From positions 2,758,902 to 2,822,901 of the forward strand of contig CM082585.2 in NCBI GenBank assembly GCA_040954595.2: DNA of 64,000 nucleotides, given 5' to 3'. Below are positions 1 through 63,200 of this stretch, piece by piece. The stretch is from Balanoglossus misakiensis. Lineage: Eukaryota > Animalia > Hemichordata. Both the position numbers and the translations under genes were made by a program. Numbering within the stretch: the stretch's first letter is position 1; each line of letters opens with the position of its first letter. The notes beneath the pieces are model-generated. The model was given only the letters and a program-made list of their open reading frames with translations. It was not told the DNA's origin and searched no databases.

Positions 1-10
1 CTTAACAGCA

Positions 11-6007: not shown

Positions 6008-6655
6008 CATGGTCAGACAAAGCCCATACTTGCTAAAGTTGAAGCAGTTCTAGATTTTCCAACACCAGGAAATAAGAAAGCGTTGATGAGATTTCTCGGC
6101 ATGGCTGGTTATTATCGACGCTACTGTCGAAATTTTGCAACCATTGCCGAGCCATTGACCAACTTACTGCGTAAGGATAACAAATTTATTTGGTCAGAAG
6201 ATTGCCAGTCTGCATTTAACAAAATTAAAGCAGTACTTTCTCACTCTCCAGTTCTTGCAATCCCAGAATTTGACAAGCAGTTTAAATTGTGTGTGGATGC
6301 TAGTGATGTTGCTGTTGGTGCAGTTTTGACGCAACAGAACGCAGATGGTGTTGACCACCCAATTGGTTATTTCTCCAAGAAACTTAATGTACACCAGAGA
6401 AAGTATTCGACAATTGAAAAGGAATGTTTGGCTGTATTGCTAGCTTTACAACATTTCGATGTATATTTAAGTTCCACAGTGCATCCAATCCTTGTATTCA
6501 CTGATCATAATCCATTGACCTTCATCCACAAAATGAAGAATAGGAATCAAAGATTAATGAGATGGAGTTTAACACTCCAAGAATATGATTTGGCAATAGC
6601 CCACATAAAAGGTAAAGACAATGTAATTGCAGATGCATTGTCGAGAGGATTTTGA
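6008..6655 (+). pseudogene. pol: C-terminal pol fragment (end of RT plus RNase H) of element 2
   Basis: FLGMAGYYRRY, VDASDVAVGAVL, YSTIEKECLA, TDHNPL, IADALSR* motifs; N-terminus cut by element 1 LTR. Confidence 0.9.
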
Positions 6656-11110: not shown

Positions 11111-11206
11111 GTGCGTCTCAGTGACGTATACTTGGAAAAAAGTGTCCGCCATCCAGAAGTGCGTCTCAGTGACGTGTACTGAACAAGTGTCCGACACCCA
11201 GAAGTG
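11111..11206 (+). repeat. Two ~46-48 bp tandem repeats, each with TGACGT, in the putative 5' UTR exon
   Basis: gtgcgtctcagtgacgt...aagtgtccg.ca.ccagaa twice. Confidence 0.75.
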
Positions 11207-11584
11207 CCTGTCGTCCACAAGGAATCATTAAATAAGCAAGTGAGTAAAGTTTTTTCCTATTTTTATAGTAATACTAAAAGGAATGCCTTTGCGTTATTGC
11301 GAAACCATGTCGCAGCATTTCATATTTTATTCAGGACAAGATTGCATGACAACCGTTTCACCAGTTTTGCCTGAATACGTTACCAGTCGGTATTATGATT
11401 TATTATCATAGACATATCAATGTGTACAAAAATCATTCGTCTAGCGTTCGACGCAATCATCATTAACACAATCACAGCTCTCAGGAGAAATTGTCTAACT
11501 TCGCTGCAACTGTCTACTGTTTTCATGAACTCATAAATACCATTATCCACTTGTTCACAGGTTGCATCAGATCCCAGTCTGAAA

Positions 11585-14500: not shown

Positions 14501-14899
14501 GTTTGTTAAAAATATCTGAAACCAATGGTCCAATTGCTTTGAAACTTCGTTTGCAAGCTTCCTAGAGATTTCCTTACTCGCTTAAAATTGTAGTGAACTT
14601 TGAATAATTCTCTCTTGAGGGCAATTCTTTCCGTTTTTTGACCAAATCATTTTCTCTGAATCCACTTATCAGATTTCTTTCAAGTTTGGTGTGTAGGATC
14701 TTGGAGATTGTATTAGTAAGATGTAACCAAATTGTCCTGAAATAAATATTTCAAGATCTCCAGACATCTTAAAGTTGCTTGACAATGAATATCAGTCAGG
14801 TTGCAAACATTAGATTATTTTTATCACCCATTCTTACAATGTAATTATTTGCCTCTTATTTCCAGGTACAGAACCAAACCTAGCAAGGGCAAATGCTGA
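11585..14899 (+). CDS. Spliced gene for a ~264-274 aa tandem OB-fold-like (RPA/HIN-200-like) putative nucleic-acid-binding protein. Coding exons: 11585-11824, 12393-12533, 12901-13107, 13744-13811, 14202-14336, 14866-14899 (or ending at TAA 14340 if the last intron is not used)
   Basis: All introns GT..AG with pyrimidine tracts; phases consistent (0,0,0,2,2); no stops. Two repeats of a beta-rich pattern: IKIKVLE..LTAIDDNGHFHEIKIW..KFTKGTFLEL and VSVVARIDKV..IVLTDGLRSMQMNLWG..VREG..VNSTVSTKI. The fold is assigned by eye. Confidence 0.8.
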
Positions 14900-15059
14900 G
14901 CTTTCCCTACCATACATCACATTCTTTTACAATGACTATGTAGGCGCATTGCTAGGATTTCAATGTTTTCAGCCACTATTAGAGTGGTGAATAGTTTCAG
15001 TTTTGTTACCCACACGAACTTGTTAGACATTAGAATTTAAGATAGTTTCTTCAAAAATA

Positions 15060-26400: not shown

Positions 26401-29400
26401 GTGGGGTCAACCTTTGCGTCAACATTAACCAGGCCAGACAGTAACAAGGCCAGAGTGGACAGTTTCCTGCCCATTAATTTTGAGTGTTTGGTGGGGTCAA
26501 CCTTTGTGTCAACATTAACCAGGCCAGACAGTAACCAGACCAGAGTGGACAGTATTCTGCCCATTAATTTCGAGTGTTTGGTGGGGTCAACCTTTGCGTC
26601 AACATTAACCAGGCCAGACAGTAACAAGGCCAGAGTGGACAGTATCCTGCCAATTAATTTCGAGTGTTTGGTGGGGTCAACCTTTGCGTCAACATTAACC
26701 AGGCCAGACAGTAACAAGGCCAGAGTGGACAGTATCCTGCCCATCAATTTTGAGTGTTTGGTGGGGTCAACCTTTGCGTCAACATTAACCAGGCCAGACA
26801 GTAACCAGGCCAGAGTGGACAGTATCCTGCCCATCAATTTTGAGTGTTTGGTGGGGTCAACCTTTGCGTCAACATTAACCAGGCCAGACAGTAACCAGGC
26901 CAGAGTGGACAGTATTCTGCCCATTAATTTCGAGTGTGTGGTGGGGTCAACCTTTGCGTCAACATTAACCAGGCCAGACAGTAACCAGGCCAGAGTGGAC
27001 AGTATCCTGTCCATTAATTTCGAGTGTTTGGTGGGGTCAACCTTTGCGTCAACATTAACCAGGCCAGACAGTAACCAGGCCAGAGTGGACAGTATCCTGT
27101 CCATTAATTTTGAGTGCTTGGTGGGGTCAACCTTTGCGTCAACATTAACCAGGCCAGACAGTATCCTGACCAGAGTGGACAGTATCCTGTCCATTAATTT
27201 TGAGTGTCTGGTGGGGTCAACCTTTGCGTCAACATTAACCAGGCCAGACAGTATCCTGGCCAGAGTGGACAGTATCCTGTCCATTAATTTTGAGTGTCAA
27301 CATTAACCAGGCCAGACAGTATCCTGGCCAGAGTGGACAGTATTCTGCCCATTAATTTCGAGTGTTTGGTGGGGTCAACCTTTGCGTCAACATTAACCAG
27401 ACCAGACAGTAACCAGGCCAGAGTGGACAGTATTCTGCCCATTAATTTCGAGTGTTTGGTGGGGTCAACCTTTGCGTCAACATTAACCAGGCCAGACAGT
27501 ATCCTGGCCAGAGTGGACAGTATCCTGTCTATTAATTTTGAGTGTCTGGTGGGGTCAACCTTTGCGTCAACATTTACCAGACCAGACAGTATCCTGGCCA
27601 GAGTGGACAGTATCCTGTCCATTAATTTTGAGTGTCTGGTGGGGTCAACCTTGTGTCAACATTAACCAGACCAGACAGTAACCAGGCCAGAGTGGACAGT
27701 ATTCTGCCCGTTAATTTCGAGTGTTTGGTGGGGTCAACCTTTGCGTCAACATTAACCAGACCAGACAGTATCCTGGCCAGAGTGGACAGTATTCTGCCCA
27801 TTAATTTCGAGTGTTTGGTGGGGTCAACCTTTGCGTCAACATTAACCAGACCAGACAGTAACCAGGCCAGAGTGGACAGTATTCTGCCCATTAATTTCGA
27901 GTGTTTGGTGGGGTCAACCTTTGCGTCAACATTAACCAGACCAGACAGTATCCTGGCCAGAGTGGACAGTATTCTGCCCATTAATTTCGAGTGTTTGGTG
28001 GGGTCAACCTTTGCGTCAACATTAACCAGACCAGACAGTATCCTGGCCAGAGTGGACAGTATTCTGCCCATTAATTTTGAGTGTCTGGTGGGGTCAACCT
28101 GTGCGTCAACATTAACCAGGCCAGACAGTATCCTGACCAGAGTGGACAGTATCCTGTCCATTAATTTTGAGTGTCTGGTGGGGTCAACCTTTGCGTCAAC
28201 ATTAACCAGGCCAGACAGTATCCTGGCCAGAGTGGACAGTATCCTGTCCATTAATTTTGAGTGTCAACATTAACCAGGCCAGACAGTATCCTGGCCAGAG
28301 TGGACAGTATACTGTCTATTAATTTTGAGTGTCTGGTGGGGTCAACCTTTGCGTCAACATAAACCAGGCCAGACAGTATCCTGGCCAGAGTGGACAGTAT
28401 TCTGCCCATGAACTTCGAGTGTTTGGTGGGGTCAACCTTTGCGTCAACATTAACCAGGCCAGACAGTAACCAGGCCAGAGTGGACAGTATCCTGTCCATT
28501 AATTTTGAGTGTTTGGTGGGGTCAACCTTTGCGTCAACATTAACCAGGCCAGACAGTATCCTGACCAGAGTGGACAGTATCCTGTCCATTAATTTTGAGT
28601 GTCTGGTGGGGTCAACCTTTGCGTCAACATTAACCAGGCCAGACAGTATCCTGGCCAGAGTGGACAGTATCCTGTCCATTAATTTTGAGTGTCAACATTA
28701 ACCAGGCCAGACAGTATCCTGGCCAGAGTGGACAGTATCCTGTCTATTAATTTTGAGTGTCTGGTGGGGTCAACCTTGCGTCAACATTAACCAGACCAGA
28801 CAGTATCCTGGCCAGAGTGGACAATATTCTGCCCATTAATTTCGAGTGTTTGGTGGGCTCAACCTTTGCGTCAACATTAACCAGACCAGACAGTATCCTG
28901 GCCAGAGTGGACAGTATCCTGTCCATTAATTTTGAGTGTCTGGTGGGGTCAACCTTGTGTCAACATTAACCAGACCAGACAGTAACCAGGCCAGAGTGGA
29001 CAGTATTCTGCCCGTTAATTTCGAGTGTTTGATGGGGTCAACCTTTGCGTCAGCATTAACCAGGCCAGACAGTATCCTGGCCAGAGTGGACAGTATCCTG
29101 TCCATTAATTTTGAGTGTCTGGTGGGGTCAACCTTTGCGTCAACATTAACCAGGCCAGACAGTATCCTGGCTAGAGTGGACAGTATCCTGTCCATTAATT
29201 TTGAGTGTCAACATTAACCAGGCCAGACAGTATCCTGGCCAGAGTGGACAGTATACTGTCTATTAATTTTGAGTGTCTGGTGGGGTCAACCTTTGCGTCA
29301 ACATTAACCAGGCCAGACAGTATCCTGGCCAGAGTGGACAGTATTCTGCCCATGAATTTCGAGTGTTTGGTGGGGTCAACCTTTGCGTCAACATTAACTA

Positions 29401-32400
29401 GGCCTGAAAGTAACCAGGCGTAGAGTGGACAGTATTCTGCCCATGAATTTCAAGTATTTGGTGGGGTCAACCTTTGCGTCAACATTAACCAGGCCAGACA
29501 GTATCCTGGCCAGAGTGGACAGTATTCTGCCCATGAATTTCAAGTGTTTGGTGGGGTCAACCTTTGCGTCAACATTAACCAGGCCAGACAGTAACAAGGC
29601 CAGAGTGGACAGTATCCTGCCCATTAATTTCGAGTGTTTGGTTGGGGCAACCTTTGCGTCAACATTAACCAGGCCAGACAGTAACAAGGCCAGAGTGGAC
29701 AGTATCCTGCCCATTAATTTTGAGTGTTTGGTGGGGTCAACCTTTGTGTCAACATTAACCAGGCCAGACAGTAACCAGACCAGAGTGGACAGTATTCTGC
29801 CCATTAATTTCGAGTGTTTGGTGGGGTCAACCTTTTCGTCAACATTAACCAGGCCAGACAGTAACAAGGCCAGAGTGGAAAGTATCCTGCCAATTAATTT
29901 CGAGTGTTTGGTGGGGTCAACCTTTGCGTCAACATTAACCAGGCCAGACAGTATCCTGGCCAGAGTGGACAGTATCCTGCCCATTAATTTTGAGTGTCTG
30001 GTGGGGTCAACCTTTGCGTCAACATTAACCAGACCAGACAGTATCCTGGCCAGAGTGGACAGTATACTGTCTATTAATTTTGAGTGTCTGGTGGGGTCAA
30101 CCTTTGCGTCAACATTAACCAGGCCAGACAGTATCCTGGCCAGAGTGGACAGTATTCTGCCCATGAATTTCGAGTGTTTGGTGGGGTCAACCTTTGCGTC
30201 AACATTAACCAGGCCAGACAGTATCCTGGCCAGAGTGGACAGTATTCTGCCCATGAATTTTGAGTGTCTGGTGGGGTCAACCTTTGCGTCAACATTAACC
30301 AGGCCAGACAGTATCCTGGCCAGAGTGGACAGTATTCTGCCCATGAATTTCAAGTATTTGGTGGGGTCAACCTTTGCGTCAACATTAACCAGGCCAGACA
30401 GTATCCTGGCCAGAGTGGACAGTATTCTGCCCATGAATTTCAAGTGTTTGGTGGGGTCAACCTTTGCGTCAACATTAACCAGGCCAGACAGTAACAAGGC
30501 CAGAGTGGACAGTATCCTGCCCATTAATTTCGAGTGTTTTGTTGGGGCAACCTTTGCGTCAACATTAACCAGGCCAGACAGTAACAAGGCCAGAGTGGAC
30601 AGTATTCTGCCCATTAATTTCGAGTGTTTGGTGGGGTCAACCTTTGTGTCAACATTAACCAGGCCAGACAGTAACAAGGCCAGAGTGGACAGTATTCTGC
30701 CCATTAATTTCGAGTGTTTGGTGGGGTCAACCTTTGTGTCAACATTAACCAGGCCAGACAGTAACCAGACCAGAGTGGACAGTATTCTGCCCATTAATTT
30801 CGAGTGTTTGGTGGGGTCAACCTTTGCGTCAACATTAACCAGGCCAGACAGTAACAAGGCCAGAGTGGACAGTATCCTGCCAATTAATTTCGAGTGTTTG
30901 GTGGGGTCAACCTTTGCGTCAACATTAACCAGGCCAGACAGTAACCAGGCCAGAGTGGACAGTATCCTGTCCATTAATTTCGAGTGTTTGGTGGGGTCAA
31001 CCTTTGCGTCAACATTAACCAGAGCAAACAGTAACCAGACCAGAGTGGACAGTATGCTGCCCATTAATTTTGAGTGTTTGGTGGGGTCAACCTTTGCGTC
31101 AACATTAACCAGAGCACACAGTAACCAGGCAGAGTGGACAGTATCCTGTCCATTAATTTCGAGTGTTTGGTGGGCTCAACCTTTGCGTCAACATTAACCA
31201 GACCAGACAGTATCCTGGCCAGAGTGGACAGTATCCTGTCCATTAATTTTGAGTGTCTGGTGGGGTCAACCTTTGCGTCAACATTAACCAGACCAGACAG
31301 TATCCTGGCTAGAGTGGACAGTATCCTGCCCATTAATTTTGAGTGTCTGGTGGGGTCAACCTTTGCGTCAACATTAACCAGGCCAGACAGTATCCTGGCC
31401 AGAGTGGACAGTATCCTGTCCATTAATTTTGAGTGTCTGGTGGGGTCAACCTTTGCGTCAACATTAACCAGGCCAGACAGTATCCTGGCCAGAGTGGACA
31501 GTATCCTGTCCATTAATTTTGAGTGTCTGGTGGGGTCAACCTTTGCGTCAACATTAACCAGGCCAGACAGTATCCTGGCCAGAGTGGATAGTATCCTGCC
31601 CATTAATTTTGAGTGTCTGGTGGGGTCAACCTTTGCGTCAACATTAACCAGGCCAGACAGTATCCTGGCCAGAGTGGACAGTATCCTGTCCATTAATTTT
31701 GAGTGTCTGGTGGGGTCAACCTTTGCGTCAACATTAACCAGGCCAGACAGTATCCTGGCCAGAGTGGATAGTATCCTGCCCATTAATTTTGAGTGTCTGG
31801 TGGGGTCAACCTTTGCGTCAACATTAACCAGGCCAGACAGTATCCTGGCCAGAGTGGACAGTATCCTGTCCATTAATTTTGAGTGTCTGGTGGGGTCAAC
31901 CTCTGCATCAACATTAACCAGGCCAGATAGTAACCAGGCCAGAGTTGACAGTATTCTGCCCATTAATTTCGAGTGTTTGGTGGGGTCAACCTTTGCGTCA
32001 ACATTAACCAGGCCAGATAGTAACCAGGCCACAGTCGACAGTATCCTGTCCATTAATTTTGAGTGTCTGGTGGGGTCAACCTTTGCGTCAACATTAACCA
32101 GGCCAGATAGTAACCAGGCCAGAGTCGACAGTATCCTGTGCATTAATTTTGAATGTCTGGTGGGGTCAACCTTTGCGTCAACATTAACCAGGCCAGATAG
32201 TAACCAGGCCAGAGTGGACAGTATTCTGCCCATTAATTTTGAGTGTTTGGTGGACAACCTTTGCGTCAACATTAACCAGAGCACACTGTAACCAGGCCAG
32301 AGTGGACAGTGTCCTGTCCATTAATTTTGAGTGTTTGGTGGGGTCAACCTTTGCGTCAACATTAACCAGGCCAGACAGTAACCAGGCCAGAGTGGACAGT

Positions 32401-32437
32401 ATCCTGCCTATTAATTTTGAGTGATTTGTGGGTCAAT
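17405..32437. repeat. 90-bp satellite array (~15 kb, about 167 monomers)
   Basis: Monomer gagtgtttggtggggtcaacctttgcgtcaacattaaccaggccagacagtaaccaggccagagtggacagtattctgcccattaattt(c/t), with 89/91-bp, 68-bp and +7-bp variants. Confidence 0.98.
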
Positions 32438-34329: not shown

Positions 34330-34880
34330 TTCATCCCTCTGGTCACAGAAGCATCGTCTGGCGTCGTTACAAGTTTAAGTTCATCCCTCCAGTACAGTAT
34401 TAGGTGGCGGCGGCGTTACAAGTATTAAGTTCATCCCTCCAGTACAGTATTAGGTGGCGGCGGCGTTACAAGTATTAAGTTCATCCCTCCAGTACAGTAT
34501 TAGGTGGCGGCGTCGTTACAAGTATTAAGTTCATCCCTCCAGTACAGTATTAGGTGGCGGCGTCGTTACAAGTATTAAGTTCATCCCTCCAGTACAGTAT
34601 TAGGTGGCGGCGTCGTTACAAGTATTAAGTTCATCTCTCCAGTACAGTATTAGTTGGCGGCGTCGTTACAAGTATTAAGTTCATCCCTCCAGTACAGTAT
34701 TAGGTGGCGGCGTCGTTACAAGTATTAAGTTCATCCCTCCAGTACAGTATTAGGTGGCGGCGTCGTTACAAGTATTAAGTTCATCTCTCCAGTACAGTAT
34801 TAGGTGGCGGCGTCGTTACAAGTATTAAGTTCATCTCTCCAGTACAGTATTAGGTGGCGGCGTCGTTACAAATATTACAC
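34330..34880. repeat. 50-bp minisatellite, about 10 near-identical copies plus diverged flanking copies
   Basis: aagttcatccctccagtacagtattaggtggcggcgtcgttacaagtatt repeated head to tail. Confidence 0.95.
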
Positions 34881-38281: not shown

Positions 38282-41200
38282 TTAATATAAGAATCCTTTG
38301 GAATCAGTCTGCATTTTCTCGGCAGATTTTTATTGAAAATAATAGTTTTATCGACAGTCACAAGCTGAGTACAACCAGAGTTTTGATCGGATTGTTTATT
38401 TACAAAAAATATGGAAAAGTCCAAACAAGCATAAAAAATAGAAAATTTATGATATGAGCTCAAAACATGCAGGACTTTGAAGTCGTCATGCATACAAATT
38501 TATAAAGCAATTTGCCCAGTAGTTGATGAGTTTAGACCAATTTAACGTTTTTCAAGCTCATTTGCACATTTTTGGCCATGACAACTTAAACAAAATTATA
38601 TCTACAGAACAGCCTTTACACTCCAAATATTGCGGCTATAAGTTTTTGTTGTGGATGGACATAGATACAGAAGCAGCTGAATCGCATAAGGTCCCAGTGG
38701 TATACACATATATTGAATGGGGCCTACAAAGATTGACTAAATTTACAATCAATCTGACAAGTAGTTTCAAACAATTTTTGATGAAAAGTTGCAAAATTTC
38801 CCAAAAGTTTCACCAAATTTCACACCAACAGTTTACTTAGGTTTACACCCCTCGCCTGAGTAGGAACATACCTTCCAAATTTCAAAGCTATCTGACAAAA
38901 AGTTTCAGAAAAACGATTTTCGACTCGGAATGGCAAAAATTGACCAAATATTACAAATATGCAAAACTGGCAACAATTTGCGCCAAACTAACTAAGATCA
39001 CAAAATGAAGGAAAAAAATCTCCAATGAGTTGAAATGAGAAATCCATGTACACAAACATTTGTGAAATACTTCCCCTATACCCTTAATACAATTAGGTAC
39101 CCTATTCAAATAGTCATAATCAACCCACTTCTTGATCGTGGAGGACAGCACTACATAAAGGTTACCAAGTGGAGAATATTCATCCGACAAGTGATTATTA
39201 GAGGTGTGCATAATAAACCAACGGTGGATTGCTGCCCCAATAAAATTGAGAGGGTGAATTAACTATTTGATTAAAAACAGTAACATATAAACTGGCTATG
39301 AAGCATGTATACAACAAGTTGTGGTTACCGAAAAAAGGTACTTGACGGGGCCGCAAGGGTCTTTAACATAGGGTCCAAGGTCTTCTCCCCCTCCTGCACA
39401 GCCTAATGATGACCATTTAAGACAGTCCACCTGTGAATCAAATATATGTGCATGTTTATAAGTAACCAATCACAAACTTGCATTATGTCATACTAATAAG
39501 TCAAAATATGCAGAACATGGTATAATGTAGGGTCAAGGCAGTGTTGTGACAATGCATAACAATAGAATACTTAGCAGATAAATCTGTGAAACAGCAATTT
39601 TGAAACTCCATTTACATCTGACTAAGTAATAGTACTGCAGAGTATAGAAGCTCCATATGGGTATTCTCTTACATGGCAATCAGGTGACAAATGATATTTA
39701 TGTGTAAACAACAAAAACATGCACACAGACTTAATAACACTGTACCTAAAACATACCCACCCATGGACGGCAAACAAATAATTAAATTCAAGGCGCCTAT
39801 ATACAATTATAGCTATGGGTAATTCTGCCAATTCTAAATGTGTCCAAACTGAATTTATGTCCAGTTCATTCACCTCATCATAATCACATTACAGGAAATC
39901 AATAATGCCCTAAAAAAGCAAATATAGATGAACTCATGCTTACCAGAAAGTAGTCTTAACCAAGCTTCAGCGCACAGGAGAACGAGAAACCCTGGACCAG
40001 TTGAAATTGCGACAATCATGGCTTCCATCTGTGAATGAAATATGCATAGCAGTTAGTAACAAATCATAAACCTGTAGGTCGCAATATATGGGATGTGATA
40101 TAAGGGAGTGTTGAGAATATACTTCCCAAGGAATTGAGGTGGCTGTAGGATTTCCAGGGGGCCATCGATTTTTTTACATGAGAAATTGGGGGGGGGGGGC
40201 ACATAACACCAGACTTTTAGGGATGACTATGAAAAAATAGCGTCAAGGACACTGTGGTCCCATTTGAGGATTACACGGAATTAGTTATAGACAAGAATAA
40301 AAATCACATGCGACACTTGCAAGCAGATATGACCTAACCATATATAAATATGAAAATGTAAAAAAATTAACAAGGACCATGCCCAATAGACTGTCATGTG
40401 TCATGGCAGTCTTACAAGTGATGCAAGAAAAATTTATGTTTGACCAAAAATTGTGTGTAGAAACACACATGACAAGCAACTTCTTACAGTCAGCCCTTGG
40501 ACAGACTGACAGACATTCAATAGCTAATGGTCTCTGTAACAGCTGGCCTATTAAGTTATGTAAACATGTAGTGTAAACAGTCTCGGGGTACAAATACCTT
40601 GTAAACAGTAACTTTCAATGCAACTGGACATGAGTTTAGAAGATTTGCTAACCAAAATCAATAATTTGCAAAAAACTCGCTAAATATTTGTTCAAAAGTG
40701 GCAAAAACACATACAAGCAAATATCACCAAAATTGTTCAAAATCCTAACTTCAATCACCACAAGGAACATGCCTGCCAAAAAGCGAATCAATCAAAGCAA
40801 TCTGACAAGCGGTTTCAGAGGGGAAAAATAACAAAAAAATTATCATCAAAATTATAAATATGTAATTTTTTGCAATAATTTGAACAAAACCATGGTTGCT
40901 CAGACAACCTATAAGAAGCTTCATACTAAATTTCAAAGAAGTAGGCCGATCACTTTCAGAAATGAAGATTTTTTACCAATAATGTTGAAAAATTAATATA
41001 AACAAATGCATCAAAAATAGAAAATCAATATTAGCTCTAAACATACAGGACTGTTTGAGGTAGACATAAGGTACCTGCATACCAATTTCCAAATTAATCT
41101 GATTAGTAGTTGGTGAGTTTGAGTTTTGACCCATTTCAAATTTTTCCACCTAATTTGCATATTTTTTAAAGTCAATGACAACTCCATTTGAAGAAACTCC

Positions 41201-48535: not shown

Positions 48536-51500
48536 ACTATTAGCCCACAACATATAGAATTGTGTAAGGTTAACGTAAGGTACATGCATACCAATTTTCA
48601 ATTTTGAAAGCAATTTGCCCAGTAGTTGTCGAGTTTCAGAGTTGACGAATTAGACACTTTCCCAGTTAATTTGCATATTTTGGCAATGACAACTTCATTT
48701 AGACAAACTCCCATCTACCCCTGTGCCTGCATCTCCACACTAAATATCAAGGTTTCCAAGTGTTTGATGTTGACGGACATACAAACATCCATACATACAT
48801 CAGGTGCAACTGATCCAATAAGGTCCCATGGTATAAATACAAATACCAAATGGGACCTAACAATTCTGATAAAATGCCTACATAGCTAGTGTAAAAACAC
48901 TTGTACCTTCAACGCCCTTGGACAACACATTTTTGTAACTTCCCCAGATCAATGGCTAATATGACTTTCCAAAGGCGACTAAAATTTGGGGGTGGGTGGG
49001 TGGGGGGGGGGGCCTGATGCAAATTCTGATACATGTACTTCATGATTTAGAGATATGGTGAAAATCCTGTCAACCAAATTACAGGGAAATCAGATTTTCC
49101 ATGTAAAATCATATCACCCAAAAATGTCAAAAGTGTCGAAAATAATTTTGAAACAAAAAGTCTACTCAAAATCATACCAAAATTTAAAGTTTAATGCAGT
49201 TGGGCAAGTAATTTGAGAATGAGGAAATTTACAAAATAATTTATAAATAATTTACAAATGCCGCACACAAACTTACAATTACTACCATGGTACCAGCAGA
49301 GACATTAGCATCGAGCAATCCCCAAGATATACATGACATGGTCTAATTACAAATATTGAATATGTAAAATAAGTACACTTCCAGTCTTTCAGTACAGTCA
49401 GCTGCTTGTGAACAATTTGCAGGTAGGTATTTCATCAAATTTACAGACCAAGTCATGCCTATACAATTCTCCCCTGAAATACGTTTTAAGCTACCCTAAG
49501 TGAGTGATGAAAATCTCATATTGTCGACAATTTCAAGATGGCCGATTTTTGCCATGTTAAAGAAATGGGAGTTCATAAGCTAAAGTGATAATGGGTCATT
49601 CTTGAACTTTTTAACAGAAAAAATAACAAAATGTGAAAAAAGTTTAATGAGTTTAATATGCTAACTACAGAGAACGACATGTTTGACCAAAGCATGAAAT
49701 ACAAAAAATGTATCATTTCTTCCATCTCTTACTACAGTGGGTTGTGGACTTTTCGCCCAGAATGCAATGTGATTTGACCCCCTAGCGCATAGTGAAAACC
49801 TATTTAAGGCAGCCAGAATGTTCTGCACTGTATGACGGGAAACATTTGTAAAGTCATGGCTAGCGTGGGCTGGTAAGTTTATGGGACTCTCCATGATAAC
49901 CGATTGTGGCTTGCCACCACCATAATTTTGAAAGGGCGACTTCACTGTTTGATGGGAAAAGGTAGCATTTACAAACAAGCTATGGAGCATGTATACAGCA
50001 AGTTGTGCTTACCGGAAAGCGGTCTTGGAAAAGGCCTAGGTATTCTCTTCCTCCTCCGGCATACGTTGAAATGCTGTGTTTAAGACTGTGAATCAAATAT
50101 ATGCAAATATTAATTAGTAACCAATCAACTTTGTTTTAGAATTATGTGGGCCATACTAATTAGTGAAAATATGCAAAACATGGTATAATGTACGGTCAGA
50201 CTGTGCTGCGATAATGTACAACAGTGGAATACGTCGATCTTAAAACTCCATTTACATCAGTACTGCAGTAAAGTGGTCCACATGGGTATATACCCCAAAC
50301 ATTGCAATTAGGTGACAACTGAAACTGACATGATATCAGATTCTGTAAATGACAGAAGGTGTACACGCACTTTGACATCTATGTAACACTGTACAATGAT
50401 TTCTTTGTTTGTTGTGAAAATGAAACTTGCATTTGATCCATCTCACTTTTCATACAACTGATTAGCATAAGAATGTACATTGTTGGCAATTATAAAACAT
50501 TTATTTAAGTATAGAAAAGTAAGCCTTAAAATTTAAACTTTAAATATCAGTATACTAAAATGTTTCAAACGTGGCTGTCAGTATATCTCATGGCGTGGTG
50601 GCGGAAGTAGATGTTGTTACCAGGGAAGACATATTGAACACAGACAAGCCCAATAGTCGCTTGGTGATTTTTTATCTTTATAAAGATTCTCAAAACTTTT
50701 TGTGCATTTAGTAGCTTTGAGCAAGTTTCTGGTACTGATCAGATTTCCGAATTCAGGACTGCGCTTCTCTGGCTTTGGTCACCATCAGCCAATGTGATCT
50801 TACGCACACATTTTTGAAAAAAAAATCCAGCCTGTTTGTGTCATGATTTATATTTTTCTTTGCGGCCTAAGGTATTGTTTTATTTCACTCTAAACAACAT
50901 TACTTTCCTTCATGTGTCTATACATAATAATAGATCTCTTAGCCAGTTTGATTAAGCATGGTGTTGGACTAGCACACTTTCAGCCAAAGTTACGGTATCT
51001 CCCTGTGTATTGATATGGGAGTAATTTCTAGCTATATGGTTAAGGAAATGCATCCAAATTTAATTTATGCATCACATGAAGATTTGAACTTGACCATTTA
51101 ATTCATGTCATCACGATCATATCACAGGCAATCGAGGCCAGAATTCGAAGGGAAAAAAAAAGTATTGATAACTGGAATGTGTAAATTAGTTCGTAGACAT
51201 ACAAATTGCTTCCTATTGCTTCGGTTGCAACGCCCGATAAAAGCAAATATATAGCAAGTCATGCTTACCATTGAGCGGTCTTAAACTCGCCCCAGACGAG
51301 GAAGAGAATCCTGAGTTGAAATGCAGGCAATCTCAGGCAGCATCTGAGAATCAAATAGACCTAGAAGTTAGTAACCAGTCATAGTAGCTCTAAGTTGGAT
51401 GTAAAAGTCTAAGTTGGGTGTACCAACTCACCTTGTTAACAGTAACTTTCAAAGAAACTGGGCAATTGGTTCAAGAGAAGATTTGCTATCCAAAAACAAA

Positions 51501-53086: not shown

Positions 53087-55492
53087 TAGTGGAGCGGCCA
53101 AACCCTAATTTTCATAGCGATTGTGCATTTTGTGATAAAAGCACCAAACTTGGCTCAGATGTGTGTTAATGTGAAGTAAACAAATTCAGATAGCGAGCCA
53201 CTAAATATCTGTTGATGAGTTTCCATGGCAACCGATTTTTCAAAATGGCCACCAATACAGATAATTTCACCCACCAAATAACAACTGTAAACACCAAAAT
53301 AAATTTAGATTACTATATTTGATACAAGGAACTGTGTAAAGAATGATTTGCAAAGATATTATGGTTACTAAACTACTTATAGGGGTAAGTAAGTTATCAA
53401 AACACAATTTAAAGGCGCAACTTTTAATCCCTTTGTTCTCGGATTAATAGGTGCTCCTCTAGAAGTGAAACCATACTGTCTATCGTCAAACATTAGGCTA
53501 ATTGCGATATTTAACTTGCAGTACATAAATTACACGTCATATGAATCACAACAGTTTACCACCTTAGCCAATGATAATCATATTAACAGATCACCGATAT
53601 ATTCGAATTGCACACGGATGCGGGCTTAGCTTACTCGTGACTGGTAAAATTTCCTTATCAACTGAGAGTCCACTGCCCGAAATAGACGTTGATCCAAACT
53701 GAGTCCACGGTCGTCGCGTTTATTGGTCGACAGACATACACATAGGGCCTCAAACGCAATGCAATCTAAATGGACCCCGGGTAACAAACCATGCGAAAAT
53801 GTTGGCTTTGTTTCGACCACAATCGCGACCGCAGCGTTGACAACGTTTTTTCGGGGCGTTGATGTTTGTCAAAATGCCATAGGAAATTAAAGAAACTTAA
53901 GTCGAATTGCTGAAACGTTAATAATCGACCATATGTCTTGATACTTTAGATCATGTATCAGTTCGACTCCAGCAATTTTGGCGACTGTTAACAGAGTTGA
54001 CCAAAAGATAAATGGCGTCTATGATTCCAAACTCATAAAAATTACACCGGGGGACACAACATTATTTTATTTGTCGAGAATAGTGTTCATCATGCCATAA
54101 ATATTGTCAAAAATGTGTGTTAATTATAAAAACCCAACTAAAGATACAAGCAGTTGGCCTTTAGATTGTCATGATACTGGCTTTCTGCCATCATTTTATG
54201 GGGAAGTGATTCTTTATTTGCATGAATCATTTGATGAAGATAAAATAGAAAAGCTAGATTCTGCACTGATTCAAACTGGTCAGATCAATTTATAAGGTTG
54301 AGAAACGAGATGCCGTTTTTTCCTGGGTTGCCTAAATTTGGAATTTTGTTCATGAAAGATATTTTTATGGGGAAAATAACGAATCAACTGAGGTTTACCT
54401 GTTAAACTTTTATCACAAAATGCCCAAATTTTATGAAAATGTTGTTTATGCCAGGTCACTATTATAATATATCTATGGTTATACAGTGTTTTAACTAAGT
54501 TTCTTGTAATCGTGGTTATTACCAAACTTGAATTTCTTTAGCGACTGAATCTCGATCCTGTATTTACCCCTTTAACTAGTTTAGTGATGATAAAAATTTT
54601 AGAAATTACTCTTTGAGCAGTTTCTTGTTTCAAATTTTGTAATATGAATTTACTTTGGAGTTTTATAATTGTTATTTTGTGGGTGAGATTATCTGTATTG
54701 GCGGCCATTTTGAAAAAATGAAAAAATAGTTGCCATGGAAACTCATCAACAGATATTGTGGCTCACTATCTGAATTTGTTTAGTTAAGCAATAAAACACC
54801 CCCAGCCATGGTATATCACGAGATTTTGACCAGTTCACGACATATACGCACGAGCGATAGCGAGTGCGTATATGGAGTTGAACTGGTCAAAATCGAGTGG
54901 TATACCATGGCTGGGGGTGTTTTATTGCTATTATATTATGCCAGTATATTGAAACTTTGCATAAAACATTTTAAAAAGGCATTTTCTTTAACTATGATAT
55001 ATGACTGTGGTATATGGCTAATATATCACGGTCACGTGTCGTGTCTCGACCAATCAAATAGCGTGATTTACACCATCAATATACTGGTATAATATAATAC
55101 ACATTAATGCACATAGCCAAGTTTGGTGCTTGTATCACAAAATGCACAATCGATTTGTTATGCCGCTGTACTGTAGACGTTAAACTGTGTTTTATCCTTT
55201 ATTCTATATTCAGAACTATTTCGGTGACCACAAATACCCTTTCTATAGTTTCTGGTTTCAAATATCCTAATCTGAAAGTACCTTGGTGTTCTTTAGTCGT
55301 TATTTTGTGTGAAAGATTAATGTAGTGGCGGCCATTTTGAAAAATGGTTGCCATGGCTACCCGTTAACAGATATTAAGTGGCTCGCTATCTGAATTTGCT
55401 TAGTACACAGTAACACACATCTGAGCCAAGTTTGGTGTTTTTATCACAAAATGCACAATCGCGATGAAAATTGGGGTTTGGCCGCTCCACTA
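53087..55492. mobile_element. Academ-like non-autonomous element with both ends, TSD ATA
   Basis: TAGTGGAGCGGCCAAAACCCTAATTTTCAT...ATGAAAATTGGGGTTTGGCCGCTCCACTA; ATA at 53084-53086 and 55493-55495; empty site near 48960. Confidence 0.85.
54785..55098. mobile_element. Small hairpin-ended insertion, resembling non-autonomous Crypton-type elements
   Basis: Interrupts tttagt/acacatt, which is contiguous at 46981-46993; contains ~52-bp inverted arms (54785-54836 and 54880-54930); no clear TSD. Family assignment is tentative. Confidence 0.65.
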
Positions 55493-57726
55493 ATACTACA
55501 TGCCAAGGGTGACTAGAATTTTTTTTTTTGGGGGGGGGGGAGGGGGCGATGCAATTCTGATACATGTACTTCATGATTTAGAGATCTGGTGAAAATCCTG
55601 TCAACCGAATTACAGGGAAATCAGATTTTCCATGGAAAATCATTTTACCAAAAAATTTCAAAAAGTGTAGAAAATAAATTTGAAACAGAAAGCCTACTCA
55701 AAATCATACCAAAATTTAAATTTTAATGCAGTTGGGCAAGCAATTTGAGAATGAAGAAACTTAGAAATAATTTATAAATTGAAAATAATTTACAAATGCT
55801 GCACACAAACTTACAATCACTACCATATTACTGTACAAGTTAAAAGGACATTGTACCAGCAGAGACATTGCGATCGAGCAATCCCCAAGATATACATGAC
55901 ATGGTCTAATTACAAATATTGAATATGTAAAATAAGTACACAACACTTCCAGTCTTTCAGTACAGTCAGCTGCTTGTGAACAATTTGCAGGTAGGTATTT
56001 CATCAAATTTACAGACCAAGTCATGCCTATACAATTCTCCCCTGAAATACGTTTTAAGCTACCCTAAGTGAGTGATGAAAATCTCATACGGTCGACAATT
56101 TCAAGATGGCCGATTTTTGCCATGTTAAAGAAATGGGAGTTCATATGCTAAAGTGATGATGGGTCATTCTGGAACTTTTTAACAGAAAAAATAACAAAAT
56201 GTGAAAAACAGTTTAATGGGTTTAATATGCTAACTACAGAGACAGACATGTTTGACCAAAGGAAGTCATGAAATACAGTAAACATATCATTTCTTCTATC
56301 TCTTACTACAGTTGGTTGTGAACTTTTCGCCCAGAATGCAATGGGATTTGACCCCCTAGCGCAAAGTGAAAACCTATTTAAAGCAGCCAGAATTTTCTGC
56401 ATAGTATGACGGAAACATTTGTAAAGTCATGGGTAGCATGGGTTGGCAGGTTTATGGGACCCTGCTCATGTTCCCTCGAATAAAACATGATACATGTTTG
56501 GTGACTTATTATTCTGTATTTTGTCATATTTTCAGATAAATCCCTATCAATCAGTCATATTTGTTCGGCCTTGCTATACAGCGAAATATAAATCTTGTTG
56601 ACTGAAATTGTTGAGGATAGTGTTACATAAAGGTTACCCATTGGAAAATATTAAAATGATTATTAGTGGTGTCCAACTCTTCATGATAACCAGTTGTGGC
56701 TTGCCACCACCATAATTTTGAAAGGGCGACTTCACTGTTTGATGGGAAAAGGTAGCATTTACAAACAAGCTATGGAGCATGTATACAGCAAGTTGTGCTT
56801 ACCGGAAAGCGGTCTTGGATCAGGCCTAGGTATTCTCTCCCTCCTCCGGCATACGTTGAAATGCTGTGTTTAAGACTGTGAATCAAATATATGCATATTA
56901 ATAAGTAACCAATCAACCTTGCTTTAGAATTATGTGGGCAATACTAAATAGTGAAAATATGCAAAACATGGTATAATATAGGGTCAGAAAAAATATCCAG
57001 CCTGTTTGTGTCATGATTTACATTTTTATTTCTGACCTAAATTATTGTTTTTGTCACTTTAAACAACATTACTCATTACTGTCCTTCATAAGTCTAATAT
57101 GATAATAGACTTCTTAGCCAGTTTGATTAAGCATGGTGTTGGACTAGCGCATGTTCAGCCAAAGCTACAGTATCTCCCTGTGTATTGGTATGGGAGTAAT
57201 TTTAGCTATATGTTTAAAGAAATGCATCCAAATGTATTCTATGCTCCATGTGAAGATTTGAACTTGTGAGTTGTCCATTTAATTCATGTCATCACTACCA
57301 TATCACAGGCAATCAAGGCCAGAATTCGAAGGGGAAAAAACAAGTATTGAAAGCTGGAATGTGTAAATTAGTTCGTAGACATACATTGCTTCCTATTGTA
57401 CCGTTTGCAACGCGTGATAAAAGCAAATATATAGCAAGTCATGCTTACCATTGAGCGGTCTTAAACTCGCCTCGGACGAGGAAGAGAATCCCGAGTTGAA
57501 ACGCAGACATTTTCAGGCAGCATCTGTGAATCAAATAGACATAGAAGTTAGTAACCAGTCATAGTAGCTCTGCGTGGCAGGGCTGCGTGTTAACAGCTAT
57601 GCCATAGCTGACACTGGTAGCTTATAACAGTCTCGATGGTGCCGAAAATCTCCCCAACAACAAAACTAATTCTGGTCAGTTTATTCGCTATCGCTTTGCC
57701 TTAAAAGTTATACTGTAGTGTGTTAC

Positions 57727-58149
57727 CACAGGGGGCTCTCCCTCCGCGATTTTATTGTTTGTTTGTTTGTTGTTGTTGTTGTTGTTGTTGTTGATGATTG
57801 GCATTATAAACAAATACATATTTCTTTATTAATAAATATGGTTTGTTGACATGTAAGTGTTAGGGAAAATTCAACGGTTAGCATTAGTGTTGGCACTTTT
57901 TTCGATCCACGGCCCCGGGCATCACTAAGCCACGAAGAGAGGGTGATGCTGGCCGTGGATCGCAATAATGCCAACACTAATACTAACAGTTGAATATACC
58001 ATAACCTGTCAAATATACCCTAATAACCTAACCCTTACATGTCAACAAACCATATTTATTGACAAAGAAATATGTATTTGTTTATAATGCCAATCAACAA
58101 CAACAACAAACAAACACACAATAAAATTGCGGAGGGAGAGCCCCCTGTG
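57727..58149. mobile_element. Fold-back MITE with CA...TG ends and 7-bp TSD (P-element-like)
   Basis: CACAGGGGGCTCTCCCTCCGC...GCGGAGGGAGAGCCCCCTGTG; GTGTTAC at 57720-57726 and 58150-58156; nearly the whole element is an inverted repeat. Confidence 0.85.
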
Positions 58150-61100
58150 GTGTTACGGTACCACCTGCCCCACAATGACAAAGCTGACTCGAGGCCACGA
58201 ACGACGTACAATTTACTCGCACGGTGTAAAACAACGCATGAATTCCATGCGACTGTGAGTTTACTGTTCGGCGCTGTAACGCTTCCCAAAGTCAGAATTT
58301 CGATGTTGGGAAGACACTGTCGCCCTACCACTACCAGTTTTTGCAAGAAGGAGTGTACATGTACTTGTAAAATAACATTAAATGCCATGCTTACCAGAGA
58401 AACGACTTCATCAAGCATGGAGGCGACCGGGACCTCCATGCTTGATGAACGTCGAAGCTGCAATGATTTTTCAAATGCAATGGTCAGCGGTACGAGAACG
58501 AGGCAGCACCTGCTCGTCAATTATGCAAATTAGTTACTACTCAATCAGAATCTTGCTTTCGCATTCTAATTAGTCAAAGTATGCAGTGCAACGTTTGTGT
58601 GCGGGTGGAGAATGCGCCTCGCCAACTGATGAATTCTCTGTCACGGCGTTCTTTGGAAGTGCGATTATGTAACCGATTATCTCATTAGGGACATAGATAA
58701 TATATTTTGTCTTCTTCAATTTGTTTGTACTACGAAAACAATTGCGAAACGAATAGCAAGCGCTTACGCTATGAAACGTAAATAAATATCAGTCATGGCC
58801 ATGTAGAAACGGAACGTCAATCCGCATTTGTCAAAAAATAATAGAAAAGACAAAGAAGCTGAGGGGAATGACCTCTCCGTTCTGACCTATCTGGGGAAGG
58901 CCTATTGCAATACGCAATATGTCAGATCATGCTACCATCCGCCATTCTGATTGGACGAGAGCTCAATCCATCGATACGAAAGTACTCAATAGAGCACTGC
59001 TGAAACTGGCCCTGAACTAATCGCATGCAACAGGGAAAACGCGACCTTTCAAATCAAATAAATACAAAAAATACAGCCAATGAATTTACGGCCGGCCGGT
59101 TTATTTCTTAACTGCTCTATAGGAATTGTTGTCACTGCCATGGACCACTTCGCGGATAGCATAACACAGGGTGTTGTGGGATAGTTTGCGTTCTGAGCGC
59201 GTGCGTTAGCCATGCAGTAGACGCTATGTTGAACGCAAATTATACCATCATGCATTGCAGATACCCTATCCGCGTAGTGGTCTATGCACGATGCATGTCT
59301 TGTCAGTGCGCACTCGACAAATTGGACCGTTTCTATAAAAAAATATGAACTGTGACTTTTGATTTTATTGAGAAATGTCTCTCGAATTAAACCATGTAAC
59401 GTAAATCAAGGAAATGTATTCTGCTAAAGTTGCTCCTGACGGGTTCGCTGAAACATTGTGTTATTGGTAAAATACGTCAAGTGTAAAATATTGAGTTACC
59501 TAATATGATAAAATATCAGATTTATGTGTTTAATCAAGATAGGCCTCTCTTCATATGTTTCATTTATTTGGTTTGAATAAAAGTTATCTGATTCAGTTTC
59601 ATGAAGTATACACGGATTAAATGTTTATCCACTGTAGTGCCACTGAAATGGCTTTCACGTTTGAGACTTCGGGCGGTAATCTTATATTTACTTTCTTCAT
59701 TTCTATTGGAGTAGACTACACCGGGGTCGACCTAAAATATCTATAAGCAATGCGCAAAGGGAGTATTTCAGCCGTGATGACCGGACGATGTCGGACAAAG
59801 TCTACAACTTAATACACGATCACCTCCAATTTGCATATGTCCATAAATGGCTAAACTTGCGTATCCTAGTGTTCTAAAGAACAAATGGTGGCGCTCTTAT
59901 TGTCGCGTGTGCCACCTCCTGAATATTTGTGATTGGCTGTATCTCAATTTGCCATGGTAACTGTAGCTAAATTTGCATAGGTTACCGTATACCTTTAAGG
60001 CACGTCAAGCGTATGTCCTTGTTGGGCTGTCTGACAGGAACGAATCGAGACCCACCGCACAGTCACGCAATAATGAAATCCACATCGCCAAAAACGATGT
60101 TTCACTAGACTCGGGTACATGCAACTATCTCATGCCATTTACAGAATTGAACACCCCAGGCAATGTTACGTGTTGCTCCATGACTGTTGCTCCATGACCA
60201 ACCAAACAGCAAACAACAAACTCATGTCCAAACCAATGACGGTCGCAACTCATTGCATTAAACAATATAGATGGGGATCCCAAAGAATAATTCAAATATA
60301 TTTGCAGAATTGCCACGCAAGTCGAGCATATTGTCCAAATTTAAGCACTCTGCAACTGAAACATAAAACCCAAGCTTTTTACAATACAGGAATTAAAAAT
60401 TCTGATTGAATTAATGCCAACATAAAACGAAAAAAGACAACTCACAAAATGTATATGTAGTGTTTCATGTAGTGTTTTGATCTCAAGAAGACATGAAAAA
60501 ATCGTCGGGGGAAAAGCAGGTGAGAACACCACCTCATTTTTGGGATATGAAATAAAAGTCTATTTTACGGAGACACCTGGTAAAAAGTCCACCCTAGTCT
60601 CAATTTTCCAGACCCCTCTGGGATAGTCGAGTAGTCCATCCCCATGAAACTGCATATTTTAAAATAGCCAAAATGAGTCAATGGGGCATTTTTTCATCCT
60701 ACCTCAACCTTGCTAAGAGTTTCCGTGCCAGTCACCTGCAAAAATTAAATTTACCACGGACAAATTGAAATACAGCCAATCGAAAAAAGTGCGCCACCAC
60801 ATGGTCATTTGAAGACTTTGATGCTCTCTTCTGGCCGTAACCGCATGTGATCCGGAATAAAATTGAGCCTTGATCGCGTTTTTTATTTTATTTTCACCAC
60901 CAACGAAAATCTACGACGGCCCAACCGCAGATTATTGCTGCTCCATACAACAACCGGCTTATACTGTACATAAGTTTTGTGTTCTGGTGGCATTTGCGGG
61001 TCTGAGACGTCATTTCTAGAAGGCCCTATTCGTTTTATACCAATAACTTTTACCACCCATGCTGGATTTTTTACGTTTTCTTTGACGACGCTTGACCCTT

Positions 61101-61420
61101 TTCTTGCTTTGTTGTAGTCTTGGTTACCCAGATGCCTTTGCAAAGGCGAATGGGTAACAGAGACCAGCTTTGTTGTTGGTAGTTTGTTTGTTCGTAACGT
61201 CTGTAACTGGGATTCTTCACTTGTGGAATATACTGCTTATTTCTTGTGTATCTGCATTTTGTTGATGCTGTCGCTCCTCTGGCAGTGAAGCAAGGGTGCT
61301 AGCTGGGACTGTTCGGGATTTACTTCCGGGGGCGGAGGATTTTCAGGAGGGACCGCCCATTTTCTCCAAGAACAATTTAGGGAGGAATAGACATAAAAAT
61401 CACAATCCTTTTGGGGGGAC

Positions 61421-63200
61421 CATGGAAAAACCCCAGGAAACTAAGGGGTACAACAGATTTCCTCCACAATTTACTGGGGTACGTCCATGGAAAAAACAAT
61501 CACCAGGAAAATAAAAAATCCTCCGGCCCCACCCTGGTAGTTAAATCTGAACAGTCCCTAACTTTTGTTTGTTTGTTTGCTTGTTTATTTGTCTGTCTGT
61601 TTGTGTATTCTATATTATGTTATATGAAGCTTCTGCTACATTTTGCATTTCCTTTTGCATAAACAATGACTAAACCGACTGGAGCGCGTTTGGGCGCAGG
61701 ATAGATTTAAGAGTTAATCCATCTGTGTTTACCGGCTAAAACCGTTCGATTTTTGCAACAAGTGAGACCGTAGTAGTAATCCGAAGGCCAGTCAGTGCAT
61801 GTTTGCATGACTGGCGTGTAGTGATACCTACCACAAAATGGTATCGCCCAAATAATGTTTGCCGGAATTTATAAGCCTGGCGCTCTCCTAACAAGTCGTC
61901 ATGTTCGCCCTCGTAGTCATGCTGCCAGTCGGGGAAAATGACGTACTTCATGTAAAAGTTTATAAAAAATAAACCAAATTTCACTGCCATGTATCCCAAA
62001 ACAATTTATGTGACAGATTTTTAAAAAGAACACTAACTTCGGCTAAGGAATGTCAAGTCATAGCTCCGCGTTCAGGTCTGTGTGTTCCCGACGCACCACA
62101 GCCCTGCATAAGGCCCCATAGACAAAACTGGTGCGCCCTCGGTCCGGACCCGGACGCCCGACCGCAGCTTTTTCTGTCGAAATTCGTTTTTATCGAAGCA
62201 AAATCCTTTCCCTTACTACTTCAACCGACCCCAAATATGATGCGTTTAACTTCTTCTAACGTCCATGTAACGCCGGGAACACACAGACCTGCACGCAGAG
62301 CTAGTCAAGTCATGGAAAAACCCCAGGAAACTAAGGGGTACAACAGATTTCCTCCACAATTTACTGGGGTACGTCCATGGAAAAAACAATCACCAGGAAA
62401 ATAAAAAATCCTCCGGCCCCACCCTGGAAGTTAAATCTGAACAGTCCCTAACTTTTGTTTGTTTGTTTGCTTGTTTATTTGTCTGTCTGTTTGTGTATTC
62501 TATATTATGTTATATGAAGCTTCTGCTACATTTTGCATTTCCTTTTGCATAAACAATGACTAAACCGACTGGAGCGCGTTTGGGCGCAGGATAGATTTAA
62601 GAGTTAATCCATCTGTGTTTACCGGCTAAAACCGTTCGATTTTTGCAACAAGTGAGACCGTAGTAGTAATCCGAAGGCCAGTCAGTGCATGTTTGCATGA
62701 CTGGCGTGTAGTGATACCTACCACAAAATGGTATCGCCCAAATAATGTTTGCCGGAATTTATAAGCCTGGCGCTCTCCTAACAAGTCGTCATGTTCGCCC
62801 TCGTAGTCATGCTGCCAGTCGGGGAAAATGACGTACTTCATGTAAAAGTTTATAAAAAATAAACCAAATTTCACTGCCATGTATCCCAAAACAATTTATG
62901 TGACAGATTTTTAAAAAGAACACTAACTTCGGCTAAGGAATGTCAAGTCATAGCTCCGCGTTCAGGTCTGTGTGTTCCCGACGCACCACAGCCCTGCATA
63001 AGGCCCCATAGACAAAACTGGTGCGCCCTCGGTCCGGACCCGGACGCCCGACCGCAGCTTTTTCTGTCGAAATTCGTTTTTATCGAAGCAAAATCCTTTC
63101 CCTTACTACTTCAACCGACCCCAAATATGATGCGTTTAACTTCTTCTAACGTCCCCGTAACGCCGGGAACACACAGACCTGCACGCAGAGCTAGTCAAGT
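61421..63200. repeat. 890-bp near-perfect tandem duplication
   Basis: 61421-62310 repeated at 62311-63200 with only a few differences seen (ctggtag/ctggaag; gtccatg/gtccccg). Confidence 0.97.

Follow-up and report, generated by a model that had tools for sequence, protein, structure and literature searches.

How do short neighbouring exons on one DNA strand come to carry cores that are antisense to each other, and what would an RNA spliced from them do? This question is raised by a 64-kb stretch of Balanoglossus misakiensis DNA (hereafter the window), for which the original prediction had described two exon types, A and B, as paralogues with constant flanks around a variable core, such that a spliced product would read as an array of repeats and spacers. 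Here we examine the common descent of these exons, the predicted pairing between them, the likely origin of their complementarity and the functions that would be compatible with it.

An array of seven exon-like cassettes

Seven exon-like cassettes follow one another on the minus strand of the window in the order H, B1, A1, B2, A2, B3 and A3 (Table 1), their status as exons being predicted from splice signals. A branch-point-like variant of TACTAAC lies 19–27 nt upstream of a CAG acceptor in all seven, and the motif tggttact, to which the original prediction had drawn attention, is indeed present upstream of the exons but runs into this branch point. At their other end the cassettes read G/GTAAGCA (six of seven) or G/GTAACCA (the remaining one). 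In array order, the predicted introns measure 871, 573, 5459, 1183, 9984 and 513 nt, and the gaps of 5.5 and 10 kb between cassette pairs are filled with repeats. A search with profiles made from five of the seven cassettes recovered exactly these seven and no eighth copy below an E value of 0.6.

Table 1. Positions of the predicted cassettes and of their sequence features within the window.
Feature	Position	Strand	Remarks
Cassette H	58395-58509	minus	exon-like; one-exon hairpin paralogue
H hairpin	58403-58454	minus	22 predicted pairs, one bulge, 7-nt loop
Cassette B1	57449-57523	minus	exon-like, 75 nt
Cassette A1	56803-56875	minus	exon-like, 73 nt
Branch-point-like TTACTAAC of B2	51367-51374	minus	overlapped by tggttact
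Cassette B2	51269-51343	minus	exon-like, 75 nt
B2 core between AAC and GTT	51287-51314	minus	colinear with A2 when flipped
B2 duplex arm	51292-51312	minus	21 nt
B2 apical-stem strand GTTTAAGAC	51278-51286	minus	predicted to close the junction loop
Predicted GT-AG intron B2/A2	50086-51268	minus	1183 nt; within the hairpin loop
Branch-point-like TTACTAAT of A2	50113-50120	minus	
Cassette A2	50013-50085	minus	exon-like, 73 nt
A2 apical-stem strand TCTTAAAC	50078-50085	minus	predicted ninth pair with the last G of B2
A2 duplex arm	50038-50059	minus	22 nt, antisense to the B2 arm
Cassette B3	39944-40028	minus	exon-like, 85 nt; arm 39998-39969
Cassette A3	39329-39430	minus	exon-like, 102 nt; arm 39403-39372; without TTTCAAC

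Several cassettes have peculiarities of their own. B2 carries an additional AG 17 nt before its acceptor (51344-51362, minus strand), which makes an alternative exon length of 92 nt possible; this AG is absent in B1, and its use would open a frame that runs from B1 into A3 over about 135 codons and is probably due to chance. A3 contains a short internal direct repeat (AAGACCTTG / AAGACCCTTG; 39329-39395, minus strand) and 22 additional bases upstream of its donor, suggesting a local duplication that shifted the donor. Inside the predicted intron between H and B1 lies a self-inverted, MITE-like element of about 430 bp (57725-58151).

H itself appears to be a more distant member of the cassette family. 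Its acceptor region scores 11-26 against those of the other cassettes, its upstream intron resembles that of A3 (E 5e-4), 17 of its last 29 bases are identical to those of B3 (p 4e-4), and its exon start agrees with that of B1 and B2 at eight of nine bases. The acceptor of H is purine-rich, weak and less certain than those of the other cassettes, and H could be the first exon of the array. It folds alone, with a z score of -5.2 and none of 200 shuffles as stable, and its arms have no predicted pairing with A or B.

Common descent of the A and B cassettes

The motifs quoted in the original prediction are found on the minus strand of both A2 (GCATTTCAAC at 50074-50065, AAGACCGCT at 50026-50018) and B2 (GCATTTCAAC at 51324-51315, AAGACCGCT at 51282-51274), and those quoted for B3 exist as well, though beyond the range that had been noted (exon 40028-39944). 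A search of the 64-kb window for TTTCAAC-N25-50-AAGAC-N8-10-GGTAAG gave five matches and thereby retrieved five of the six A/B cassettes, A3 remaining unmatched, while 100 shuffles produced a mean of 0.00 and at most 0 matches. The AAGAC block begins 14 nt upstream of the donor in A1, A2, B1, B2 and B3. The asserted constancy of the motifs is nonetheless incomplete: TTTCAAC is present in five of six cassettes and exact AAGACCGCT in four of six, and A3, the partner of B3, has lost TTTCAAC and possesses only AAGACCCTT, located mid-exon. H has only a diverged form of TTTCAAC. Two pattern scans of metagenomes returned no match.

The intron ends said to be shared by A and B are indeed alike on both sides. 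Acceptor regions (45 nt) score 31-46.5 in all nine A-versus-B pairs, as compared with a mean of 3.2 (sd 7.1, maximum 15) in 42 comparisons of cassettes with six acceptors of an unrelated gene in the window. On the donor side, intron positions +7 to +30 are identical between A and B at 13-16 of 24 sites without gaps, and the last 14 exon bases of A1 and A2 match those of B at 9-10 positions. Within the exons, the two motifs are identical between A and B at 10/10 and 9/9 positions, which exceeds the expectation from the 67% identity of the intron flanks (p ~5e-4, uncorrected).

Taken together, these comparisons make it well supported that A and B are paralogues and that one ancestral exon cassette was duplicated, as had been proposed, with H enlarging the family by a seventh paralogue. 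A1/B1 and A2/B2 are 87-95% identical, introns included, and represent one recent segmental duplication, so that no more than two of the A/B pairs in the array are independent. An older copy is B3-A3 (~68-71% identity). Over 100 nt, the flanking introns of A2 and A3 agree at 74% per column; the A2 and A3 exons share 51 of 108 columns, and the flanks of B2 and B3 are ~60% identical per column.

Predicted pairing of B exons with the following A exons

No A or B exon folds notably by itself. Joined B+A exons, however, are predicted to fold with z scores of -3.25, -3.22 and -2.77 for pairs 1, 2 and 3 (1, 0 and 2 of 200 shuffles), and the B-A duplexes of the three neighbour pairs reach -3.1, -4.6 and -5.3 (2, 0 and 0 of 300 shuffles), as compared with -0.5 to 1.4 for six B-B and A-A pairings of different exons. 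Random neighbour windows attain z ≤ -3 in 5 of 300 cases and z ≤ -4 in 1 of 300. The strict inverted-alignment scores of the three pairs are matched by 9, 7 and 33 of 3000 random windows; under a permissive score, pairs 1 and 2 (53 and 49.5, against a random mean of 41.7) are not unusual, since 169 of 1500 random windows score at least 50.

In the predicted fold of each pair, the main duplex, 21-30 bp long and containing a G-G mismatch, is followed by an internal loop and an apical stem, TTAAGAC/GTCTTAA, which measures 9 bp in pairs 1 and 2, holds the splice junction within its loop, and is identical in pairs 1/2 and pair 3 despite the divergence of the exons. The canonical Drosha stem is roughly 35 bp long; the main duplex of pairs 1 and 2 (21 bp plus a weak lower stem) and the hairpin of H (22 bp) fall below this length, pair 3 forms about 30 pairs plus a weak basal extension, and the apical region far exceeds a canonical loop in size. 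In five of the seven exons, a candidate CNNC spacing whose middle bases vary (CCGC vs CTAC) occurs within the final 16 nt.

The best reading of these features, which we hold with about even confidence, is that of a non-coding host RNA yielding intron-split small-RNA precursors. A polymerase II transcript would be spliced so that B and A arms form compact hairpins, each B exon pairing with the following A exon around an intron in the hairpin loop, and H would form a one-exon hairpin of the same transcript. Splicing would leave 8-16 nt of a loop that measures 0.5-1.2 kb in the precursor and would in this way gate processing, and enzymes of the Drosha/Dicer type would cut the hairpins into small regulatory RNAs. 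What the sequence itself shows is that the cassettes share a common origin, carry near-consensus splice signals at either end, have antisense cores and lack a conserved reading frame.

The substitutions in the duplexes bear on whether pairing matters at the RNA level. On the spliced strand, the best ungapped 18-mers of the three pairs contain 7 G:U and 1 A-C, and a loose alignment of pairs 2 and 3 contains 16 G:U against 6 A-C (p 0.026), an excess that points to selection on RNA rather than to DNA-level conversion and that comes mostly from pair 3. For pair 3 the fold reaches -64.8 with the spliced strand and -49.2 with the opposite one, whereas pair 2 favours neither strand (-49.4 vs -51.5). 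Of the four differences that separate pairs 1 and 2 in the duplex or at its edge, three switch between Watson-Crick and G:U pairs. The consensus fold contains two double changes outside the main duplex and six broken pairs, which does not amount to a real covariation count because there are only two independent pairs, with indels. B3 and A3 pair at -65.5 vs -45.8 to -50.7 for cross pairs, their own partner being better by 15-20 kcal/mol, while for A1 and A2, B3 is as good a partner as their own B exon. When all exons are joined, pairing of A1 with B2 (24.7 expected pairs) is in competition with that of B1-A1 (15.4) and B2-A2 (13.7).

Pairing between B and A is likewise predicted before splicing (41, 32 and 60 pairs in the precursor), so that splicing is not needed for pairing in silico. 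This agrees with an unlikely alternative, in which the transcript is real and the pairing is a long RNA structure that steers B-A splicing, or a substrate of RNase III or of editing, with no stable small RNA made. Such a role would suit an apical stem placed right at the intron ends, where the acceptor AG of the precursor can lend its G to the ninth pair, and it would suit the stem geometry of pairs 1 and 2, which is not canonical for a pri-miRNA; junction-spanning RNase III signals are moreover described in fission yeast and proposed for human SNHG25 (PMC12508059). It sits less well with duplexes of 21-30 bp and a 22-bp H hairpin, which are small-RNA sized, and with searches beside the cassettes that revealed neither a hosted snoRNA or another Rfam RNA nor a hairpin conserved in the introns.

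A core inversion as the probable origin of complementarity

Whole A and B exons, aligned unflipped, are barely or not at all more alike than shuffles (z -0.2 to 1.9 over nine pairs). The B cores are homologous to each other, and the A cores are the reverse complement of the B cores. When B2 is flipped between 51314 and 51287, its alignment score to A2 rises from -9 to +31: of 67 aligned columns 48 then agree, and the stretch from TTTCAAC to the arm is free of gaps. When all breakpoints are tried, the highest-scoring flip gives 35, as compared with a mean of 4.0 and a maximum of 26 in 60 shuffles, in a test that mixes complementarity and motif sharing. In pairs 1 and 2 the best breakpoints coincide with AAC and GTT or lie just within them; in pair 3 they are poorly defined. 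B1 and B2 self-pair across AACTC/GAGTT (-6.2 and -5.1 kcal/mol), whereas A1 and A2 do not, and short inverted repeats favour loop inversions.

The cores are thus complementary, as originally stated, but a one-step micro-inversion in the A copy explains this better than their having gradually become so. We consider it reasonably probable that the locus arose by duplication of a cassette followed by inversion of the core in the A copy. An ancestral cassette would have been duplicated, and in the A copy a core of ~30 nt would have flipped at the short inverted repeat AAC...GTT or within it, the 'constant flanks' being the parts that kept their orientation. Two substitutions at the A start (GCCTGAA-type to GTCTTAA) would then have perfected a stem of 7-9 bp with TTAAGAC at the B end: the A3 start CTGTCTTAA and the B1 start CTGCCTGAA differ at two bases, and both changes complete the pairing with TTAAGAC. 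With this apical stem, TTAAGAC/GTCTTAA, the terminal loop would come to hold the splice junction. Two further duplications of the B+A unit would have followed, giving an old copy 3 and recent copies 1 and 2. A conceivable alternative starting point is an H-like hairpin ancestor of which each copy lost one arm.

Because an inversion yields complementarity without selection, the array could also be a non-functional relic of a duplicated cassette with an inverted core, in which complementarity is decaying or is kept by conversion of the inverted arms at the DNA level. We regard this as rather unlikely. The motif loss in A3, the repeat-filled gaps of 5.5 and 10 kb and the status of pairs 1 and 2 as a recent duplicate would all fit decay; yet branch point, AG and GGTAA donor are retained in all seven cassettes though the flanks of B2 and B3 have diverged to ~60% identity per column, the apical stem is unchanged between the old copies, and the excess of G:U over A-C on the spliced strand is not expected under DNA conversion.

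The mirror relation of the cores also undercuts the picture of a repeat-spacer-repeat product, since the supposed spacers are one sequence and its mirror image. As a reading in its own right, an array whose constant motifs act as protein-binding or cleavage signals that release variable spacers is very improbable. It can draw on motifs that lie in register with the donor and agree better between A and B than the intron flanks do, and on a C-N-N-C spacing that persists in five of seven exons despite altered middle bases, but it has to contend with an A3 without TTTCAAC, an H with only a diverged form, and cores that form one family plus its mirror image rather than acquired spacers. The role of the motifs as protein-binding or processing signals is, by the same token, weakly supported at best: the absence of TTTCAAC from A3, the identity of tggttact as a branch point and the structural partner of TTAAGAC, which is one strand of the junction-spanning stem, all weaken it. 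Given the excess motif identity and the CNNC spacing in five of seven exons, there is a case, though not a strong one, for some signal role.

Coding potential, known RNAs and genomic surroundings

No reading frame stays open through all joined exons, and Pfam gave no match for three ORFs overlapping or adjoining the cassettes. The indels between B2 and B3 are not multiples of three, and the changes between B1 and B2 mostly alter amino acids. An Rfam search of positions 35000-64000 found nothing at the cassettes, including no known miRNA family, and two weak matches elsewhere, both under their gathering scores. A scan of the introns in 700 windows detected no shared hairpin or snoRNA, the only hairpins being that of H and repeat-element-like ones.

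These results bear on the possibility that the cassettes are protein-coding micro-exons, or repeated exons whose introns hold the real RNA, as in host genes of the C19MC or snoRNA type, which we consider scarcely credible. In its favour, one frame is open across B2-A2-B3 taken alone, the A2 and A3 intron flanks are alike (74% per column over 100 nt), and a C/D-box-like pair follows B1 and B2. Stops occur, however, in all frames of the joined exons, and with the indels, the amino-acid changes and the absence of a Pfam match for the three ORFs the coding reading is largely refuted; the intronic variant is opposed by the absence of an Rfam match near the cassettes and by the lack of the C/D-like pair at B3. 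The pair in question (RTGATGA...CTGA, 135-141 nt) lies ~150-290 nt past the donors of B1 and B2 on the minus strand.

Other classes were rejected on the following grounds: (i) protein-coding tandem exons, since no open frame is conserved across paralogues; (ii) a transposon with terminal inverted repeats, since the homology of the copies extends hundreds of bases beyond the arms; (iii) a spliced-leader RNA, since every cassette has an upstream acceptor; (iv) a host gene of the C19MC or snoRNA class, since neither Rfam nor the 700-window scan detected a conserved hairpin or snoRNA per intron; (v) an hpRNA of the Drosophila type, given duplexes of 21-30 bp and no target within 64 kb; and (vi) a CRISPR-like repeat-spacer array, given that A3 is without the motif and that the cores are homologous or mirror copies. 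Targets of the arms were sought within the 64-kb window and none was found, and a literature search with six arm motifs returned no paper.

The remainder of the window is varied. A Gypsy-type LTR retrotransposon pol, with a second, shorter fragment after it that looks pol-like from the sequence, is found at positions 2-4519 and 5945-6655 (plus strand); it has one stop near 3154, and its relatives reach ~70% identity, those with names belonging to fish, sea cucumber and coral. A multi-exon gene at ~11200-14900 (plus strand), whose acceptors served as the controls above, gives the impression of repeated OB-type folds, and its exon at 12901-13107 has no Pfam match and one homologue, which is 75% identical and named as an uncharacterised protein of Ptychodera flava; this one hit points loosely to an acorn worm, and the relatives of the retrotransposon do not narrow the taxon. 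A 15-kb satellite (17407-32436) consists of 90-bp units of ~48% GC with recurrent 68-bp variant units; a 50-bp minisatellite lies at 34360-34877, and a direct tandem duplication of ~890 bp at ~61420-63200. The hairpin at 54787-54929 is strong, with 51-nt arms that are 94% complementary, and is probably a MITE; it has a weak Rfam match to mir-6095 (41.6 bits vs a gathering score of 100).

Relation to known systems

By analogy, the working mode of the array would be most like that of the intron-split plant microRNAs miR444 (grasses) and miRtop14 (Solanaceae), in which, as PMC11706861 describes, two separate exons carry the arms, the loop contains the intron and splicing gives a compact precursor. 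Here too, the arms are predicted to lie on two exons with a GT-AG intron between them, and the predicted hairpin of the joined exons is significantly stable. Unlike its plant counterparts, the array belongs to an animal, combines three predicted split hairpins with an unsplit one, consists entirely of paralogous exons, and carries putative arms that seem derived from exon duplication and inversion. The authors of PMC11706861 knew of no such gene outside miR444 before miRtop14. Our literature search, which covered mostly papers outside subscription, found no intron-split microRNA in an animal; lists of hemichordate miRNAs in supplements or databases may already contain these arms. Intron-split hairpins are also not among the non-canonical classes listed for MirGeneDB 2.1 in the sections of PMC8728216 consulted.

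Akin to a canonical animal pri-miRNA, as characterised in PMC6943042 and PMC8728216, the predicted hairpins have an imperfect, G:U-rich duplex of 21-30 bp and, in A1 and A2, a candidate CNNC spacing 3' of the stem; they differ from it in being split by an intron, in their large branched apical region and in the weak lower stem of pairs 1, 2 and H. Splice-junction RNase III signals, as reported in PMC12508059, are known from S. pombe mamRNA/snoU14 (Pac1) and from human SNHG25, for which DROSHA is proposed; like them, the cassettes would form a hairpin across an exon-exon junction in a non-coding host. In those two cases, however, the signals order snoRNA maturation, whereas the cassettes have no snoRNA that we could find and form a repeated unit.

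The C19MC host gene of primates, as outlined in PMC2691840, likewise has a non-coding transcript with tandem, short, frameless exons and a link to small RNAs, but there the hairpins are intronic and the exons of one sense, whereas here the exons themselves would be the arms. Drosophila hpRNAs (Nmy, Tmy), as described in 10.1101/2021.08.05.454923, resemble the array as lineage-restricted inverted repeats that arose by local duplication and then multiplied; their stems are longer (~130 bp in one case) and match target genes, whereas the cassette duplexes measure 21-30 bp and have no target in the window.

Discussion

What is valuable in this locus is not a code of repeats and spacers but the flip and the intron-split hairpins that it implies. 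Going beyond a host RNA with split precursors, we can entertain, tentatively and with less than even confidence, an animal cluster of intron-split microRNA or siRNA hairpins of one-step origin, through exon duplication and micro-inversion of the core, in which the loop would be closed by the splice junction itself and splicing and the choice of exons (for example B1 with A2) would select the small RNAs that are made. The intron-split hairpin layout has so far been described mainly in plants, and the annotation of animal microRNAs assumes that both arms lie on one contiguous genomic stretch. If the reading is true, a split-exon cluster in a deuterostome would represent a class that is invisible to finders that fold contiguous genomic DNA, and it would exemplify a birth of hairpin genes in one step, by which an exon is duplicated and its middle flipped.
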